From a virus (lineage: Duplodnaviria > Heunggongvirae > Uroviricota > Caudoviricetes), in the IMG/VR virus record IMGVR_UViG_2671180473_000015: a DNA stretch of 35,845 nt. One strand, 5' to 3'. This document shows positions 990 through 35,502 of the stretch, piece after piece. Made by a program: the position numbers and the translations under genes. The notes under the pieces are model-generated. The model saw nothing but the letters and a program-made list of their open reading frames with translations, had not been told where the DNA came from and searched no databases. Position 1 is the stretch's first letter. Every line of letters starts with the position of its first letter.

Positions 990-1028
990 ACAACAGGAAT
1001 TGTTTCGGTATAGCTTCTGGAGTTTTCT

Positions 1029-1202
1029 ATGGAAGATCAAAAAGCAACCAAGCCACAGGTTAAGTTCGACACAATGAAAGCATTCGCAGGTATGGGTGCT
1101 GCTGTTGAAGTTCTGATGAAGGCTGCTCCTAATGCGTTCACTCACGCTACTGTCTCTGGTAAAGAGCAGCAGGGTAAGCTTCGTCGTCGCAAAGCAGCAT
1201 GA
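1029..1202 (+). CDS. small hypothetical protein (57 aa)
   Basis: ATG at 1029, TGA at 1200-1202, immediately followed by a strong intrinsic terminator. Below the 60-aa cut-off of the ORF track. No recognisable family. Confidence 0.3.
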   Translation: MEDQKATKPQVKFDTMKAFAGMGAAVEVLMKAAPNAFTHATVSGKEQQGKLRRRKAA

Positions 1203-3928: not shown

Positions 3929-3978
3929 AAAAAGAGCGGTACCAGCCGGAAGCAAGTGTACAAACTGGTACCGCCAAA
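3929..3978 (-). ncRNA. DicF-like small RNA candidate ending in an intrinsic terminator
   Basis: Minus-strand sequence TTTGGCGGTACCAGTTT...CTGGTACCGCTCTTTTT: an 11-bp stem (GGCGGTACCAG / CTGGTACCGCT, one G-U) followed by a U-run. Its 5' half closely resembles the core of DicF (TTTGGCGGTATCAGTTT) as I recall it. Located in the early-left operon downstream of the repressor gene, as DicF is in Qin. The 5' end is not determinable. Confidence 0.4.
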
Positions 3979-4406
3979 GCAGTGGCTGTTGTGGTGACCG
4001 GTGCTGATCTCCGGCTTGCGGTTATTTCAGACTCTCACGGGCGTTTAATTGCCCCGCCGAACAGCTCTTTTCCGCATTAGCTGCAATGTCTTTCGCGCAT
4101 CAGCCTGCGCATTCACCACAACGCTGAGAGCACTTAGCCAGTTACGGCACCACACTTTGTCGCGGTTCCATAAATGTCCTCATCGTTGCACCCTGGTCTC
4201 TTCCCAGGCGTCAAACCGAATCGCCACGCTGGTTAGGCGTCTTATCAGCATCATCATTGACTTGCACATTCCGGCTACCTGGTTTGTTTGCCCGAGCAAG
4301 GAGTGGATTGTCCCCTTTAACGTCCCCAGACCGCTAACGACGCATGTGCCATACGCCGTGTTACAACCAAATTTTGTTTAATCTTGCCTGTGCTGTGTTT
4401 CTTTTA

Positions 4407-4439
4407 GATACATTATGTATCCCAAAGGTACATTGTCAA
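4407..4439 (-). promoter_or_regulatory. PL-like early-left promoter overlapped by two operator palindromes
   Basis: On the minus strand: perfect -35 TTGACA (plus 4434-4439), 16-nt spacer, -10 CATAAT (plus 4412-4417). Overlapping palindromes TGTATCCCAAAGGTACA (4416-4432) and GATACATTATGTATC (4407-4421) share half-sites with the operators next to the repressor gene. Confidence 0.6.
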
Positions 4440-4440
4440 G

Positions 4441-4466
4441 TATAAAAAAACCTGCCGAAGCAGGTT
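4441..4466 (-). terminator. rho-independent terminator immediately downstream of the repressor gene
   Basis: Stem AACCTGC / GCAGGTT (loop CGAA) followed on the minus strand by a 7-nt U-run. The repressor stop is at 4478-4480. Confidence 0.55.
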
Positions 4467-4477
4467 ATAAATATTGA

Positions 4478-5152
4478 TTAGGCCTTTATTATGTATCTTC
4501 TTGGTTTTCCTGAGAAAATCACTGTACCAATTATAGAGCAATTACCGTTAATCTTAATGTAAGGCTCAGGCCAGTTTGGGTTTAATGCTTTGAGATAACG
4601 CTGTGTTCCATCTTCTATCAACCGCTTGAAGGTGGTTTCGCCTGTATCGTGCATCAATGCAATAACGTCGTCACCGTGGCAGGCAGGGACTTCAGGATCA
4701 ACAAAAATCATGTCTCCCGGGCGGTACTCATCAATCATTGAATCACCAATCACCCGCAAGATATAAGTCATTTCGCCACAGGGTACAGGGCAGGGATAAG
4801 TTTCTGCTGTGCTCAAATCAACCTCAGAATAGCCAACTTCTTTCCATGCTCCGGCCTGTACCCATGATATGACAGGGACTAACGTTATTTGTTTGTTAGT
4901 GATTGAAACGTCAGGTTTTTTTGTGATGTTCGTTGTCTGGTGTTCTTGATCAAGCCATCCGACAGGCAGGTCGAAACATTTTTCGATGTGCCGTGCCATG
5001 CTGTCACCGATATTTTTAGTTGCACCATCTCCCATAAACCTGCTGGTCTGGGTTGGCTCGCGATCAATCATGGTGGCAAAGGAAGAATTCCCGCCAACAC
5101 CATCTCTCAGTTTTCTGGCGTTAGACCGCCGGATGTCATGGACTGTTTTCAT
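4478..5152 (-). CDS. CI-like prophage repressor (HTH domain plus S24 LexA-like autopeptidase domain)
   Basis: 224-aa ORF. C-terminal domain carries the GDSM Ser motif (LRVIGDSM) and a downstream Lys (TFKRL) typical of S24 self-cleaving repressors. Divergent from the cro-like gene, with operator palindromes between them. Confidence 0.85.
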   Translation of the reverse strand: MKTVHDIRRSNARKLRDGVGGNSSFATMIDREPTQTSRFMGDGATKNIGDSMARHIEKCFDLPVGWLDQEHQTTNITKKPDVSITNKQITLVPVISWVQAGAWKEVGYSEVDLSTAETYPCPVPCGEMTYILRVIGDSMIDEYRPGDMIFVDPEVPACHGDDVIALMHDTGETTFKRLIEDGTQRYLKALNPNWPEPYIKINGNCSIIGTVIFSGKPRRYIIKA

Positions 5153-5169
5153 AAAGAAATTAAAACCTT

Positions 5170-5236
5170 TGTACCGATAAGGTACAAGTATCTTGAAGGT
5201 TCATCTCAATCATGTAATATGTATACCGGAGGTACA
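5170..5236. promoter_or_regulatory. OR-like operator/promoter region (divergent PRM / PR)
   Basis: Two 17-bp palindromes: TGTACCGATAAGGTACA (5170-5186) and TGTATACCGGAGGTACA (5220-5236), consensus TGTAyM-N5-GGTACA. Candidate PR elements: -35 TTGAAG (5193-5198) and -10 TAATAT (5215-5220), the latter overlapped by the second operator. Repressor start is at 5152, cro-like start at 5243. Confidence 0.6.
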
Positions 5237-5242
5237 TATTGT

Positions 5243-5443
5243 ATGAAAGCGTATTGGGACTCTTTAACCAAAGAACAGCAGGGTGAGTTGGCCGGAAAAG
5301 TTGGCTCAACACCAGGCTACTTACGGCTGGTTTTCAATGGTTATAAAAAAGCCAGTTTTGTGCTGGCTAAAAAACTTGAGCAATGCACGTCAGGTGCAAT
5401 TACGAAATCTGACTTAAGACCGGATATCTATCCGAAAGATTAA
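5243..5443 (+). CDS. Cro-like small HTH repressor
   Basis: 66-aa ORF with SD GGAGGT about 9 nt upstream of the ATG. Divergent from the repressor gene. The track ORF 4940..5443 is an upstream extension across the operators and is rejected. Confidence 0.7.
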   Translation: MKAYWDSLTKEQQGELAGKVGSTPGYLRLVFNGYKKASFVLAKKLEQCTSGAITKSDLRPDIYPKD

Positions 5444-5474: not shown

Positions 5475-6038
5475 ATGAGGCTAACCGTGGGTAAGCATCA
5501 CTGGAAAGTAGAAAAACAGCCTGAGTGGTACGTGAAAGCTGTCAGAAAAACTATCGCGGCGTTGCCGGGGGGTTACGCTGAAGCTGCTGAGTGGCTGGAT
5601 GTAACAGAGAACGCTTTATTCAACCGCCTTCGTGCAGATGGCGATCAGATTTTCCCGCTGGGATGGGCAATGATTTTACAGCGCGCGGCTGGCACTCACT
5701 ACATTGCGGATGCTGTCGCACAGTCTGCTGGTGGGGTGTTTGTATCGCTTCCTGAAATTGAGGAAGTAGAGAACGCCGATATAAACCAGCGCCTGCTGGA
5801 AGTCATCGAACAGATCGGGAGTTACTCAAAGCAGATTCGTTCGGCAATCGAAGATGGGGTAGTGGAGCCACACGAGCAGACAGCAATTAATGATGAGTTG
5901 TATCTGTCAATTTCGAAGCTCCAGGAGCATGCAGCACTGGTCTACAAAATCTTTTGCGCTCCAGAAAAGAGTGACGCCCGCGAGTGTGCAGCTCCGGGCG
6001 TCGTGGCGTTTTGTGTCTGTGGAGAAACTAACGCATGA
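5475..6038 (+). CDS. early regulatory protein at the cII position (CII/YdaT-like, family uncertain)
   Basis: 187-aa ORF directly downstream of cro. Stop overlaps the next start (ATGA). Family assignment is from position and weak recollection only. Confidence 0.4.
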   Translation: MRLTVGKHHWKVEKQPEWYVKAVRKTIAALPGGYAEAAEWLDVTENALFNRLRADGDQIFPLGWAMILQRAAGTHYIADAVAQSAGGVFVSLPEIEEVENADINQRLLEVIEQIGSYSKQIRSAIEDGVVEPHEQTAINDELYLSISKLQEHAALVYKIFCAPEKSDARECAAPGVVAFCVCGETNA

Positions 6039-6871
6039 ACAGTTTAACGGCAAATAACCGTTTGTCGCAACAGCTGGTGGTCAGCGTCGCTGAACACCTG
6101 TTGTTACGGCATGAATGCAGATTACCAAATCACCTGGCTGTAAGTAACCACAGAGAACTTTACCTGACTGTGGGGGGCGAGTTGTGCAGGAACTTAACCG
6201 CTGGTTTCGTGACGGAAGAGGACTTTATGTTCATGTTATTCGTTGGGAGCCAGAAACACAGCGCGTTATCTATCTTCGCAAAGACTACCCGCATGAGTGC
6301 TTTAGTCCTTTGTGGAAATTCAGGCGTGATTTTGTTGAGTGTGAAGGACCACCAGCACATTGATTCTGCCATTCCGGGACGTTACACTGTTCAGGCACCT
6401 TATAAAGCGGGTGCCGGGATTGGCGTCCTGGAATTGATCAAGGCGATATATGACGCGCCAGCGTCTTTTTTATCGTCCGCATTTGCTCACATCAAAGTTA
6501 TGGTGGGCTGGGCGGGGGCATCGAAAGATGCGCCGGTTTCCTTGATCACCGGTTACGCCAACCCCGTTCAGTTCACCACCAGCGAAATTGGCGTTTCCGG
6601 TGGTGGAAGTATTTCACCGATCAAGGAGGCTGCCATCATGGCTACTGTCCCAGCCCTCACTCGTCTGAATGATGAAGACTTACATAAACTCAGTTATGTA
6701 ACAACTGCACTACGTGCTCTGCGCAAGGTAACTCTTTCGGATCCGCAGGCACATCAGGTTCTGGTAGAAACCCTTCTTAACTTGCAAGCTGAACGTATTC
6801 GTCTGGCGGATAAGGCTAATTTTCATATTCACCGTCTCCTGAATATCAGCGGAGGGCATCGTCATGCTTAA
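6035..6871 (+). CDS. hypothetical protein (gene structure uncertain)
   Basis: 278-codon open frame with SD GGAG upstream of the ATG at 6035, translationally coupled at both ends. No family recognised. An alternative 59-aa ORF in another frame (6184..6363) starts just after a G6 homopolymer, so a frameshift or overlapping genes cannot be excluded. Confidence 0.35.
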   Translation: MNSLTANNRLSQQLVVSVAEHLLLRHECRLPNHLAVSNHRELYLTVGGELCRNLTAGFVTEEDFMFMLFVGSQKHSALSIFAKTTRMSALVLCGNSGVILLSVKDHQHIDSAIPGRYTVQAPYKAGAGIGVLELIKAIYDAPASFLSSAFAHIKVMVGWAGASKDAPVSLITGYANPVQFTTSEIGVSGGGSISPIKEAAIMATVPALTRLNDEDLHKLSYVTTALRALRKVTLSDPQAHQVLVETLLNLQAERIRLADKANFHIHRLLNISGGHRHA

Positions 6872-13642: not shown

Positions 13643-14695
13643 ATGAAAAATACTGTAAAAATAAACAGTGTTGATTTAATCAACGCTGATTGCCTGCATT
13701 TTATTCAGTCCCTGCCTGATGATTCCATTGACCTGATTGTTACCGATCCGCCTTACTTCAAGGTGAAACCCAACGGTTGGGACAATCAGTGGAAAGGGGA
13801 CGAAGATTACCTTAAGTGGCTGGACCACTGTCTGGCCCAGTTCTGGCGGGTGTTGAAACCTGCCGGAAGCCTTTACCTGTTCTGTGGGCATCGCCTGGCA
13901 TCTGATATTGAGATCATGATGCGTGAACGTTTCAACGTGCTTAACCATATCATCTGGGCGAAGCCGTCCGGACGTTGGAATGGGTGTAATAAAGAAAGTC
14001 TGCGCGCATATTTTCCTGCCACAGAGCGCGTTCTGTTTGCTGAACATTACCAGGGGCCATATCGCGGCAAAAGTGACGGCTATGCGGCAAAAGAAAGGGA
14101 ACTCAAACAGCACATAATGGCACCGCTGATATCGTATTTCAGGGATGCTCGTGCCGAACTGGGTATAACGGCAAAACAAATTGCCGAAGCCACAGGTAAG
14201 AAAAATATGGTTTCCCACTGGTTTGGTGCCAGTCAGTGGCAGTTGCCGAATGAGGCTGACTATCGGAAGTTACAGGCACTGTTTTCCCGTATAGCGGCAG
14301 AGAAGTTTCAGGAACAACAACTGGAACAACCACACCACCAGCTGGTGGCATCTTATGATTCACTGAATCGTAAATATTCTGAATTGCTGGATGAGTTTAA
14401 ATCTCTCCGGCGCTATTTCTCCGTATCAGTCTCCGTGCCTTATACCGATGTCTGGATGCATAAACCCGTTCAGTTCTACCCGGGGAAACATCCGTGTGAG
14501 AAACCGGCGGATATGCTCAGGCAAATAATCAATGCCAGTAGTCGACCAGGTGATCTGGTTGCTGATTTTTTTATGGGATCCGGTTCCACAATAAAAGCAG
14601 CAATGGCGCTGGGGCGTCGGGCCTTAGGTGTTGAGCTTGAGTCAGAGCGGTTTAATCAGACAGTGAAAGAGATAAACGAGCTGGTGGGGAAATAA
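13643..14695 (+). CDS. DNA methyltransferase, N4/N6 beta-class (DPPY motif before FxGxG motif)
   Basis: 350-aa ORF. Catalytic motif IVTDPPYF near the N-terminus and SAM-binding DFFMGSGST near the C-terminus (PF01555-type order). No cognate endonuclease in the window. Confidence 0.85.
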
Positions 14696-14900: not shown

Positions 14901-15140
14901 NNNNNNNNNNNNNNNNNNNNNNNNNNNNNNNNNNNNNNNNNNNNNNNNNNNNNNNNNNNNNNNNNNNNNNNNNNNNNNNNNNNNNNNNNNNNNNNNNNNN
15001 NNNNNNNNNNNNNNNNNNNNNNNNNNNNNNNNNNNNNNNNNNNNNNNNNNNNNNNNNNNNNNNNNNNNNNNNNNNNNNNNNNNNNNNNNNNNNNNNNNNN
15101 NNNNNNNNNNNNNNNNNNNNNNNNNNNNNNNNNNNNNNNN
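14901..15140. other. N-run (240 nt) - assembly gap or masked sequence
   Basis: Continuous n characters; removes the holin 3' end and the holin-endolysin junction. Confidence 0.95.
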
Positions 15141-26173: not shown

Positions 26174-26511
26174 CGCGGGAAATGCAGTTTGTCATGCGGC
26201 TTGCCCGGGAGTTCCGGCGGGCAGACTGGCGGCGGATGCTGTCGGAAATGTCGGCCACTGAGCTTGGTCAGTGGGGCGATTATTTCCGGATGCAGAGCTT
26301 CAGTGATGTGTGGATGGATGCGCAGTTTGCCTCGCTGAAGGCATTGATCGTGAGAATGGTGTCCGGCAGCAGTGATGCTGCGGTGGCTGATTTCAGCCTT
26401 TTACCGGAAGAGAACGGGATACCGGAGCGAACGGACGAAGAACTGATGCATCTTGGGGAAGGTATTTCCGGAGGTGTGCGTTATGGACCAGATAGCCAAC
26501 CTGGTCATTGA
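25784..26511 (+). CDS. T: tail assembly chaperone G-T fusion via predicted -1 programmed ribosomal frameshift
   Basis: The T frame is open from 26149 in the -1 frame relative to G and has no plausible independent start context. Candidate slip site G GAA AAG at 26161-26167 (lambda uses G GGA AAG). The T ORF ends at 26511, overlapping the tape-measure start. Confidence 0.55.
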
Positions 26512-31294: not shown

Positions 31295-31896
31295 AAACGG
31301 GGTCCGAAGCCATCCGGGCGCTGGCCATGCAGATCCCGGCGTTTCGTCAGAAACTGAATGAGGGCTGGTATCAGGTGCGCATTGCCGGGCGTGATGCAGG
31401 CGAAAATGAATTATCTGCCCGTCTTAATGAGCCGCTGGCAAATGGTGCCGTGATCCACATCGTGCCGCGTCTGGCGGGAGCTAAAAGTGGCGGTGTGTTT
31501 CAGGTGGTGCTTGGGGCGGCGCTGATTGCGGTGGCATGGTGGAACCCTGTGGGCTGGCTGGGGNNNNNNNNNNNNNNNNNNNNNNNNNNNNNNNNNNNNN
31601 NNNNNNNNNNNNNNNNNNNNNNNNNNNNNNNNNNNNNNNNNNNNNNNNNNNNNNNNNNNNNNNNNNNNNNNNNNNNNNNNNNNNNNNNNNNNNNNNNNNN
31701 NNNNNNNNNNNNNNNNNNNNNNNNNNNNNNNNNNNNNNNNNNNNNNNNNNNNNNNNNNNNNNNNNNNNNNNNNNNNNNNNNNNNNNNNNNNNNNNNNNNN
31801 NNNNNNNNNNNNNNNNNNNNNNNNNNNNNNNNNNNNNNNNNNNTCAGCACGGCAGACGAAGGGGATGGTGGTCAGGTTGTGGTGATTGGTCGCTGA
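31192..31896 (+). CDS. I: tail assembly protein I (interrupted by an N-run)
   Basis: Starts MAATHTLPLASPGMARICLYGDLQRFGRRIDLRV as in lambda I. Overlaps the 3' end of K in another frame, as in lambda. The middle is lost in the N-run 31564-31843. Ends ...STADEGDGGQVVVIGR. Confidence 0.75.
   Translation: MAATHTLPLASPGMARICLYGDLQRFGRRIDLRVKTGSEAIRALAMQIPAFRQKLNEGWYQVRIAGRDAGENELSARLNEPLANGAVIHIVPRLAGAKSGGVFQVVLGAALIAVAWWNPVGWLGXXXXXXXXXXXXXXXXXXXXXXXXXXXXXXXXXXXXXXXXXXXXXXXXXXXXXXXXXXXXXXXXXXXXXXXXXXXXXXXXXXXXXXXXXXXXXXSTADEGDGGQVVVIGR
31564..31843. other. N-run (280 nt) - assembly gap or masked sequence
   Basis: Continuous n characters inside gene I. Confidence 0.95.

Positions 31897-31956: not shown

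Positions 31957-35502
<3,546 letters not shown>

Follow-up and report, generated by a model that had tools for sequence, protein, structure and literature searches.

The region from 4407 to 5236 is very probably the switch between lysis and lysogeny in the e14/SfV immunity group, at which CI and Cro are predicted to bind. It lies in a window of 35,845 nucleotides, by which we mean the whole stretch of DNA analyzed. The cI gene (minus strand) and the cro gene (plus strand) are divergent, and the 90-bp intergenic region contains three dyads, two of them strong and the third weak. This layout of divergent repressor and cro genes, a short intergenic region, and multiple dyad operators is that of a lambdoid switch. 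A further lambdoid feature is that predicted operators lie across PR and PRM and also across PL, the other early promoter. Membership in the e14/SfV immunity group is supported by a near-identical CI and by strong-site half-sites that are alike in K-12, SfV, and the window. The CI/Cro module itself is already known as e14/SfV immunity, and the OR pair is already annotated in the SfV record. It is an ordinary immunity module of the lambda-paradigm kind and adds nothing conceptual to lambda. The features, including five proposed operators, are listed here.

4396 to 4412, unstranded: OL2, TGTTTC-TTTTA-GATACA, a weaker proposed site, inverted repeat (10.0 bits, rank 4 of 35,829)
4412 to 4439, minus: PL, with -35 TTGACA (4439 to 4434), 16-bp spacer, and -10 CATAAT (4417 to 4412)
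4416 to 4432, unstranded: OL1, TGTATC-CCAAA-GGTACA, TGTATCCCAAAGGTACA, proposed site (20.5 bits, rank 2)
4441 to 4466, minus: intrinsic cI terminator, AACCTGC-TTCG-GCAGGTT followed by TTTTTTT, conserved in relatives
4478 to 5152, minus: cI-type repressor gene, 224 aa, recognized from the open reading frame and Pfam; homolog of K-12 e14 ymfK/cohE
5159 to 5187, minus: PRM, with -35 TTGTAC (5187 to 5182), 17-bp spacer, and -10 TTTAAT (5164 to 5159), recognized from homologs
5170 to 5186, unstranded: OR-left, TGTACC-GATAA-GGTACA, TGTACCGATAAGGTACA, proposed site, perfect palindrome (23.0 bits, top score of the window)
5187 to 5203, unstranded: OR-middle, AGTATC-TTGAA-GGTTCA, a conserved weak proposed site (6.8 bits, rank 5 of 35,829)
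5193 to 5220, plus: PR, with -35 TTGAAG (5193 to 5198), 16-bp spacer, and -10 TAATAT (5215 to 5220)
5220 to 5236, unstranded: OR-right, TGTATA-CCGGA-GGTACA, TGTATACCGGAGGTACA, proposed site (17.1 bits, rank 3)
5243 to 5443, plus: cro-type gene, 66 aa, helix-turn-helix, ATG at 5243; homolog of K-12 ymfT/croE

The repressor and cro genes and their neighborhood

K-12 YmfK and the CI of the window are identical at 222 of 224 residues (99%). CI residues 93 to 212 match the Pfam family Peptidase_S24 (PF00717; E value of 1.5e-26), and the C-terminal domain matches that of lambda CI (E value of 1.8e-9). The motifs VQAG, GDSM, and FKRL are invariant among relatives. We place the Ala-Gly cleavage site and the Ser/Lys dyad by aligning CI with the motifs of LexA and lambda. 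The repressor carries a C-terminal domain of the LexA/S24 autocleavage type.

The N-terminal helix-turn-helix of CI gave no Pfam match at an E value of 0.01 or below. Residues 1 to 76 have a weak match to the N-terminal domain of SPC32H Rep, a Salmonella phage repressor (5d50; E value of 0.0026). The segment DREpTQxSR, a putative recognition segment, is invariant along with the half-sites in the 27 homologs used below, and the first 75 residues are the same in the CI of the window and that of SfV. Distant CI relatives from Burkholderiales (L029 to L031) have other recognition segments and other upstream repeats. The difference is consistent with co-variation of protein and site, in relatives that are too few and too distant for a test.

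The hairpin of the cI terminator spans 4466 to 4449, and PL is directly downstream of it. The terminator, which is also annotated in the SfV and Ayreon records, insulates PL from read-through out of cI.

A 201-bp gene matching cro is annotated in Ayreon and SfV, and its RefSeq name is ymfT. The Cro protein has weak YdaS and HTH_3 matches in Pfam, below the gathering score, and it weakly resembles two solved phage Cro proteins, 8co2 and 8c7k (E value of 0.01). Just 3' of cro are a cII-like gene of the phage 186 CP76 family and an Ash/c4/isrK antisense-RNA module. The initial annotation had described the region as a complete immunity switch. A CI/Cro switch with operators is what we find; "complete" is an overstatement, because the c4/isrK module and the CP76-type cII-like gene follow just downstream.

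There is no minus-strand open reading frame of at least 40 aa between PL and the terminator at 3974 to 3929, and we found neither an N-like gene nor cIII. SfV-type phages are described as having no cII, cIII, or N homologs in the SfIV paper (PMC3851460). The early-left organization of lambda proper, with N first in the PL operon and with cIII, is absent, and it is inessential to the switch itself. The GGTACC-containing repeat at 3936 to 3974 was weighed as a further operator but dropped; it has the wrong spacing and is the stem of the intrinsic terminator in the PL leader.

Predicted operators and promoters

The motif TGTAYM-N5-GGTACA occurs at three places in the 35,845 bases. These give four matches, because the perfect palindrome matches on both strands, against 0.05 expected. 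The three 17-bp dyads, the palindrome of 15 bp, and the promoter (TTGACA, 16 bp, CATAAT) of the initial annotation all read from the sequence where it had placed them. Its proposal of operators on both sides of the repressor gene also held up: three sites flank 4478 to 5152, and their half-sites are kept in 27 homologs. The same is true of the near-consensus PL overlapped by the left sites, which matches the consensus at 11 of 12 positions and is conserved in all homologs.

We made a phylogenetic footprint from 27 homologs with CI proteins 61 to 99% identical, from many genera of Enterobacterales, including Escherichia, Proteus, Edwardsiella, Hafnia, Serratia, and Pantoea. The half-sites TGTAYC and GGTACA are near-invariant, and the 5-bp spacers are free, with about zero information. 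No indels occur from OR-left to OR-right. The perfect dyad, over the -35 of the cI promoter, is the most conserved, and the site at -43 is weak in every genus. Chance palindromes without function would have in their favor the general abundance of short palindromes and nothing more. However, none of 100 shuffled sequences reached the observed count of the motif, and the half-sites are kept across genera despite divergence of the DNA around them to 69 to 74% identity. We give the chance explanation practically no credence.

A site matrix was built from the relatives alone and scanned over 35,829 positions of the window. The five proposed sites were the top five positions. Shuffled windows contained about 1.75 sites at 6.8 bits or more, and the score of OR-middle is not significant by itself. 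We therefore argue for OR-middle and OL2 from where they lie and how well they are kept, both of which overlap with the constraints on promoters.

The proposed sites lie on promoter elements. OR-left takes up -34 to -18 of PRM, where it lies over the -35 and the spacer, and -57 to -41 of PR. OR-middle lies over the PR -35, with its center at -43 of PRM, a position like that of lambda OR2. OR-right extends from -7 to +10 relative to PR, over the -10 and the predicted start, and includes GGAGG (5228 to 5232), the Shine-Dalgarno sequence of cro. OL1 fills the PL spacer and overlaps the PL -10 by 2 bp. OL2 is 3 bp from OL1 and lies over the PL start region. The palindrome at 4407 to 4421 (GATACATTATGTATC) had been listed as an extra overlapping palindrome, but it is no element of its own and consists of the OL2 right half, TTA, and the OL1 left half; in relatives, this junction reads GGTACA-TTA-TGTAYC. 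The right pair had been said to bracket the cro promoter. It does so, but it does not merely bracket it, since the palindrome covers the PRM -35 and spacer. A larger palindrome around OR-right (5210 to 5246) was rejected as an element; the PR -10 accounts for one side of it and the cro start region for the other, and its flanks are weakly conserved.

Having only two OR sites had been called notable. We found instead a conserved weak third site at 5187 to 5203, with the pattern AGTAYC-TTGnn-GGTTCA, the fifth-ranked position given above. An alternative to five sites would limit the repressor to the dyads at 5170, 5220, and 4416, so that OR truly has two operators, and would ascribe the conservation at 5187 to 5203 and at 4396 to 4412 to promoter elements (the PR -35, the stretch 5' of the PRM -35, and the PL start region) or another factor. 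The weak-site scores are within the shuffled-sequence range, as this alternative would have it, and promoter elements account for part of the middle site, in which TTG forms the PR -35 and A5187 belongs to that of PRM, which it completes. The left half of OL2, tgtt.c in relatives, is poorly conserved and absent in several homologs, among them L011, L014, and L016. The center spacing is 20 bp in the OL pair and 17 bp from OR-left to OR-middle; these are mutually inconsistent, and such unequal spacing is an awkward fit to one cooperative binding geometry. However, the middle-site pattern AGTayC..GGTTCA(T) is kept in all homologs, and the PR -35 accounts for its TTG alone. GGTTCA(T) is near-invariant although it falls in the spacer of PR, a promoter part that is free in sequence, and the Proteus homolog has GGTACA instead of GGTTCA. 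The OL2 right half, GGTACA in relatives, is near-invariant between the PL -10 and start, and full OL2 dyads are present in L018 and in Edwardsiella phage EPP-1, which has a good OL2 (TGTATCTTATAAGTACA). Moreover, the fourth and fifth matrix matches in 35.8 kb each adjoin a strong site. We regard the restriction to three sites as unlikely and favor five operators.

Another possibility is that the dyads are weak boxes for host LexA and that the prophage region is under direct LexA control. Induction of e14 genes is reported to need LexA cleavage and has been ascribed to 13 weak LexA boxes (PMC11228462), and the half-sites have TGT and ACA in common with the LexA box. However, there are 11 bases between TGT and ACA in the dyads and 8 in the LexA box, and the flanking C and G are missing. 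We found no CTGT-N8-ACAG at one mismatch or fewer in 4380 to 5260 and no 20-bp LexA consensus at three mismatches or fewer in the whole window. The sites also co-occur, and are conserved, with a dedicated CI-type repressor, and a need for LexA cleavage could also arise indirectly, presumably through induced RecA. We consider direct LexA control highly improbable and retain CI and Cro as the proposed ligands.

PL is also an annotated promoter in Escherichia phage Ayreon (MF807953), and its start is predicted at about 4405. PR was read from the sequence, and its 8 of 12 consensus positions fall under the promoter-scan threshold. Its geometry is present without indels in all homologs, as TTGnnG, 16 bp, and TAATAT, CATAAT, or TATAAT. 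The predicted PR start is at about 5227, which would give a leader of about 16 nt. PRM, the cI promoter, had been missed by the initial annotation. Its +1 is the A of the cI ATG (5152), and the cI mRNA is leaderless. A TnTAAT hexamer 6 nt 5' of the ATG is present in 21 of 27 homologs and TTGTAC in 25 of 27, and a cI Shine-Dalgarno sequence was found in none of the 27. In K-12, differential RNA-seq found that transcription of ymfK begins right at its start codon, which leaves a leader of 0 nt (Romero et al. 2014, PMC4681348 Table S3). PR and PRM stand back to back, and about 75 bp separate the starts assigned to them. A leftward promoter at the cro start (TACAAT, 5242 to 5237) was rejected; its columns are not conserved.

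Proposed mechanism of the switch

We suggest that a RecA-cleavable, lambda-CI-like repressor (the YmfK/CohE homolog) and a small Cro (the YmfT/CroE homolog), encoded divergently, make up the switch. Both proteins would bind 17-bp dyads with the half-sites TGTAYC and GGTACA and a non-specific 5-bp center, at the five sites listed. In a lysogen, CI would keep PR and PL silent from OR-right (alone or together with the middle site) and from OL1 and OL2. The role of OR-right would be repression of PR, as for lambda OR1, and OL1 and OL2 together would block leftward early transcription. Occupancy of OR-left by CI would limit cI synthesis, an autorepression like that at lambda OR3. Because PRM is active in K-12 lysogens with the best-looking operator lying over its -35, the predicted autorepression can only be partial. 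After DNA damage, RecA-stimulated autocleavage of CI would release PR and PL. Cro would then occupy the same sites, including OR-left, and shut off PRM. In this scheme, we infer the binding by CI and Cro, the order of occupancy, any stimulation of PRM by protein on the middle site, and the starts of PR and PL. A wiring unlike that of lambda, in which the best operator serves mainly for tight negative cI autoregulation or as the first Cro target and not for PR repression, and in which the site at -43 is weak by design, is conceivable, but we are inclined to doubt it.

In the searchable literature, from which Mehta 2004 on e14, Roberts 2007 on the immunity of SfV, and Allison 2002 on its genome are absent, we found no EMSA, footprint, or ChIP on this repressor or Cro, and full-text searches for the operator strings returned nothing relevant. 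A Reg-Seq study whose promoters included those of ymfT and ymfJ saw no consistent footprints. The phage phiR49_1 and its "star" derivative, which we compared in search of an operator mutation, are identical over the immunity region.

The e14 genes show late SOS induction, which its authors credit to a CI-like repressor (PMC11002266). Recent K-12 papers on e14 induction diverge, invoking a "putative YmfT regulon," weak LexA boxes, or a CI-like repressor. On the less likely wiring unlike that of lambda, five YmfK operators would also explain the K-12 "YmfT iModulon" and the e14 SOS induction that has been ascribed to weak LexA boxes. Two K-12 y-ome regulators would then have a concrete, testable regulon; about 24% of the complete E. 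coli genomes carry them. Amid these conflicting accounts, the five-site map and the position of PRM provide precise mutation targets.

Comparison with e14, SfV, and lambda

The e14/SfV-type cI/cro module is present in 1,324 of 5,426 complete E. coli genomes, K-12 included. Further carriers are the serotype-converting phages SfV and SfIV and the cdt and Stx2c toxin phages. Across 4380 to 5260, DNA identity is 95 to 98% with SfV, the cdtI phage, the Stx2c phages, and Ayreon. The initial annotation had proposed comparing the half-sites with known immunity groups, and when this was done, the strong sites matched those of K-12 e14 and SfV (TGTAYn/GGTACA). Once the operator code of the module is known, one immunity group is defined, and the prophages that should cross-repress become predictable.

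K-12 e14 has the same OL1, OL2, OR-left, middle site, OR-right, PL, PR, PRM, and cI terminator as the window, with spacer and flank changes only. The OL2 right half is GGTACA in e14 and GATACA in the window, and the OR-right left half is TGTACA in e14 and TGTATA in the window. The PL leader left of about 4385 differs between the two. They also differ 3' of cro, where e14 has ymfL and ymfM and the window has the CP76-type cII-like gene and the Ash/c4/isrK module.

In SfV (GenBank U82619; Allison et al. 2002), the "putative operator region" at 26377 to 26445 corresponds exactly to window positions 5169 to 5237, from the left to the right dyad. Like the window, SfV has a downstream CP76-like gene and an "immunity region" open reading frame. 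It differs from the window by a few base changes and by an extra gene, orf33, after PL. Beside SfV, the same kind of immunity is found in SfIV, the cdtI phage, the Stx2c phages, Ayreon, and 2H10.

The lambda switch, for which we draw on established knowledge, shares with the window divergent cI and cro genes, 17-bp dyads, back-to-back PR and PRM, a leaderless cI mRNA, and an S24 autocleaving domain. The operator sequence is different, and OL has two proposed sites in the window and three in lambda. Site spacings are 17 and 33 bp in the window and 23 to 24 bp in lambda. The window also departs from lambda in placing cI between OL and OR, with a dedicated terminator that directly abuts PL, and in lacking rexAB. 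Also unlike in lambda, the best-consensus site of the window lies over PRM on the -35 rather than the -10 side. As in lambda, there would be three OR sites, one on the PR -10, one on the PR -35 (about -42/-43 relative to PRM), and one on the core of PRM.

Probable operator sites flanking cI and cro

As the initial annotation had claimed, 17-bp operators lie on both sides of the repressor gene: the dyads flank cI (4478-5152) and cro (5243-5443), and a sequence read-out reproduced the coordinates of its four sequences.

Operator dyads and the genes they flank
4478-5152, minus strand: cI ORF, 224 aa, Peptidase_S24 domain
5243-5443, plus strand: cro ORF, 66 aa, helix-turn-helix
5170-5186: OR-left dyad, TGTACCGATAAGGTACA
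5220-5236: OR-right dyad, TGTATACCGGAGGTACA
4416-4432: OL1 dyad, TGTATCCCAAAGGTACA
4407-4421: 15-bp sequence first annotated as an extra palindrome, GATACATTATGTATC

The motif TGTAYM-N5-GGTACA occurs at only three places in the 35,845-base window, where 0.05 matches were expected, and none of 100 shuffles reached this count. For a phylogenetic footprint, we took 24 loci with a CI repressor 61-99% identical to that of the window from one-genome-per-species contigs. The genera included Escherichia, Atlantibacter, Pseudocitrobacter, Leclercia, Klebsiella, Phytobacter, Enterobacter, Pantoea, Trabulsiella, Kluyvera, Limnobaculum, Rahnella, Edwardsiella, Symbiopectobacterium, Serratia, and Proteus. 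Adding Hafnia phage yong2, Edwardsiella phage EPP-1, and SfV gave 27 homologs. The column consensus of OR begins TGTAcC-N5-GGTACA-AGTacC-TTG..-GGTTCAT and continues, after 15 variable or semi-variable bases, with TGTAc.-caGGA-GGTACA. The half-sites carry close to the maximal information and the OR-left spacer almost none, and no indels separate the left and right dyads in the compared homologs. For OL, the consensus reads tgtt.c-T..ta-ggTACA-TTA-TGTA.C-N5-GGTACA-TTGTCAAg, and the cI terminator comes next. The shuffle count, together with the conservation of OR and OL, excludes chance palindromes as the explanation of the dyads. The CI N-terminal segment DREpTQxSR is invariant (27 of 27 proteins), which is consistent with one shared operator specificity.

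The supposed extra palindrome at 4407-4421 turned out to be where two neighbouring operators meet, OL2 (4396-4412, TGTTTC-TTTTA-GATACA) and OL1, with TTA between them; jointly they form a 37-bp near-palindrome. Full OL2 dyads of good quality are present in EPP-1 (TGTATCTTATAAGTACA) and in one further homologous locus, L018 (TGTAACTTATGGGTACA). In the right half of OL2 (4407-4412), the window has GATACA where e14 (the cryptic prophage of K-12), SfV, and almost every other relative have GGTACA; OL2 may be weakened in the window's lineage. Nor does OR have only two sites. A conserved weak third site, OR-middle (5187-5203, AGTATC-TTGAA-GGTTCA), directly adjoins OR-left. In a rival three-site model, OL2 and OR-middle would be conserved through promoter constraint only. 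We consider this model improbable: the −35 element of the cro promoter, PR, accounts for TTG only, and the GGTTCA(T) of OR-middle is inside the PR spacer, yet it is nearly invariant, and reads GGTACA in Proteus.

We then scored the window with a position weight matrix made from the relatives' strong sites only, with spacer columns neutralised. The top five of 35,829 positions were 5170, 4416, 5220, 4396, and 5187. The weak sites scored 10.0 bits (OL2) and 6.8 bits (OR-middle), values that are not significant alone, because shuffles yield about 1.75 matches of at least 6.8 bits. The significant point is that both of these best background-level matches adjoin strong sites and are conserved.

Promoters and the cI start

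The leftward promoter PL was read correctly at the outset as a near-consensus minus-strand promoter (TTGACA at 4439-4434, 16 bp, CATAAT at 4417-4412; consensus match 11/12); the cI promoter, PRM, had not been located. PL directly follows an intrinsic terminator (4466-4449) and its T run. The PL spacer is occupied by OL1, and the predicted start, near 4405, lies within OL2.

PR and the OR sites relative to PRM
PR: TTGAAG 5193-5198, 16 bp, TAATAT 5215-5220; consensus match 8/12 in the window
OR-left: −34 to −18 of PRM, covering the −35 and spacer
OR-middle: centre −43 of PRM, upstream of the −35
OR-right: centre −76 of PRM, distal

All homologs share the PR geometry: the last base of the −10 (TAATAT, CATAAT, or TATAAT) is the first T of OR-right. 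With a predicted start near 5227, the PR leader would be about 16 nt long, and its Shine-Dalgarno sequence GGAGG (5228-5232) is within OR-right.

Of the 27 homologs, 21 have the PRM −10, TnTAAT, exactly 6 nt 5' of the cI start codon (window TTTAAT, 5164-5159), and 25 have the −35, TTGTAC, 17 bp farther upstream (window 5187-5182). No homolog (0/27) has a Shine-Dalgarno sequence for cI. The cI mRNA is therefore predicted to be leaderless, with the A of the ATG (5152) as its first base. Differential RNA-seq agrees, placing the start site of K-12 ymfK at its start codon, with a 0-nt leader; the study detected only five such mRNAs, ymfK among them (Romero et al. 2014, PMC4681348, Table S3). With TTGTAC and TTTAAT 17 bp apart, PRM may work reasonably well unaided, and OR-middle, centred at −43, may or may not activate it as OR2 does in lambda. 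The conserved cI start, MKT..EIRR, follows the −10 hexamer by 6-7 nt. The annotated cI starts appear wrong in yong2 (L003 1283-1840, too short) and in EPP-1 (L004 1291-2025, too long), where the annotated gene runs across the operators.

Sequences on either side of the switch

A mosaic boundary lies at about 4385, some 10 bp beyond OL2, and left of it the window differs from e14 and SfV. The PL leader of about 610 nt (4405 to 3792) has no minus-strand ORF of at least 40 aa, and the first sizeable gene after PL is yfdP-like (start 3791). The leader contains an intrinsic terminator (3974 to 3929, minus strand; GCGGTACCAG...CTGGTACCGC, then TCTTTTT), followed by a hairpin (3928 to 3840, minus strand) whose stem is 25 bp long; the fold z-score is −5.45. 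Where the window has this terminator and hairpin, yong2 (L003) has a tRNA-Gly(CCC) gene (1018-1091, minus strand). A conserved GGCGGCTACTTCGTGGGCGTCCTGCC block at the PL transcript start is common to e14, SfV, and many other genera (L002, L005-L015, L019, L023). Masked N runs occupy 14901-15140, 30118, 31564-31843, 32455-32681, and 34451-34666.

To call the immunity switch complete was an overstatement. A CP76-family gene (phage 186 cII-like) is immediately 3' of cro, and an Ash-family ORF (6035-6871), labelled "immunity region" in the SfV record, carries an RNA module.

RNAs inside ORF 6035-6871 (Rfam, above gathering score)
6395-6471, plus strand: isrK Hfq-binding RNA, 64 bits
6496-6583, plus strand: C4 antisense RNA, 82 bits

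Together, isrK and C4 make up a second immunity module beside the CI/Cro switch, based on RNA and of the P1/P7 c4 type. Transcription-termination-mediated immunity was reportedly described in SfV by Roberts in 2007. K-12 e14 and phage PhiR49_1 have ymfL and ymfM at this position, whereas the window has the isrK/C4 module.

Proposed regulation and relation to known switches

The window's cI/cro region is 95-98% identical to its counterparts in Shigella phage SfV, in SfIV and phage cdtI, in several Stx2c-converting phages, and in the Escherichia phages Ayreon and 2H10. RefSeq names the two E. coli genes ymfK and ymfT, the repressor and cro of e14, and the module is present in 1324 of 5426 complete E. 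coli genomes. The window CI matches K-12 YmfK at 222 of 224 residues, and OL and OR of K-12 have nearly the same sequence. By this near-identity, the window is assigned to the e14/SfV immunity group. The "putative operator region" of the SfV GenBank record (26377-26445) is exactly window 5169-5237, left dyad to right dyad, and in the Ayreon record this PL promoter and the cI terminator are annotated as well; therefore, the element is already catalogued. Annotation of the OR pair dates from 2002, and the finding is ordinary and already known. A literature search found no binding experiment on these operators.

We suggest that all five dyads are targets of CI dimers. Binding at OR-right, jointly with the middle site, and at OL1/OL2 would silence PR and PL, and binding at OR-left would limit cI transcription. 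Cro would shut off PRM through the same sites; the CI and Cro of lambda have opposite orders of preference for their shared sites. One cooperative geometry does not explain why the spacing is 20 bp at OL but 17 bp at OR-left/middle. RecA-stimulated CI autocleavage would lift repression: the CI S24 domain has VQAG, GDSM, and FKRL and is homologous to the lambda CI C-terminal domain. In K-12, induction of the e14 genes is SOS-dependent and late (PMC11228462, PMC11002266).

Direct LexA control of the region is unlikely. Weak LexA boxes have been suggested for e14 (PMC11228462), but CTGT-N8-ACAG at up to one mismatch is absent from 4380-5260, the 20-bp consensus at up to three mismatches is absent from the whole window, and the TGT-to-ACA distance in the dyads is 3 bp longer than in a LexA box. 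Dependence on LexA cleavage can, we infer, be indirect, through RecA level. Elsewhere there are two perfect CTGT-N8-ACAG cores, at 6138-6153 (CTGTAAGTAACCACAG), with the isrK/C4 RNAs about 250 bp downstream, and at 13653-13668 (CTGTAAAAATAAACAG). These cores may be LexA boxes or may match by chance; nothing resembling a promoter was found near the first, and the whole window has 21 one-mismatch matches versus 12 expected.

Published descriptions of the regulon of the two K-12 regulators are still inconsistent. PRECISE-1K calls it the "putative YmfT regulon," the Reg-Seq study found no consistent footprints for it, and other accounts invoke the weak LexA boxes or a CI-like repressor (PMC11002266). 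The practical value here is a precise site map, open to test, for both regulators.

The core of the initial interpretation holds, with four corrections (the extra palindrome, the number of OR sites, PRM, and "complete"). The switch is no new kind of system: it would work like that of lambda, and it has the divergent cI and cro genes with dyads between them, the repressor S24 domain, and the dyads overlapping PR, PRM, and PL that mark a lambdoid CI/Cro switch. Lambda-proper N and cIII are absent from the window switch (our ORF scan; PMC3851460). The window further differs from lambda in having two OL sites, in its site spacings, in the best dyad lying over the PRM −35, and in the position of cI between OL and OR, with the cI terminator adjoining PL.
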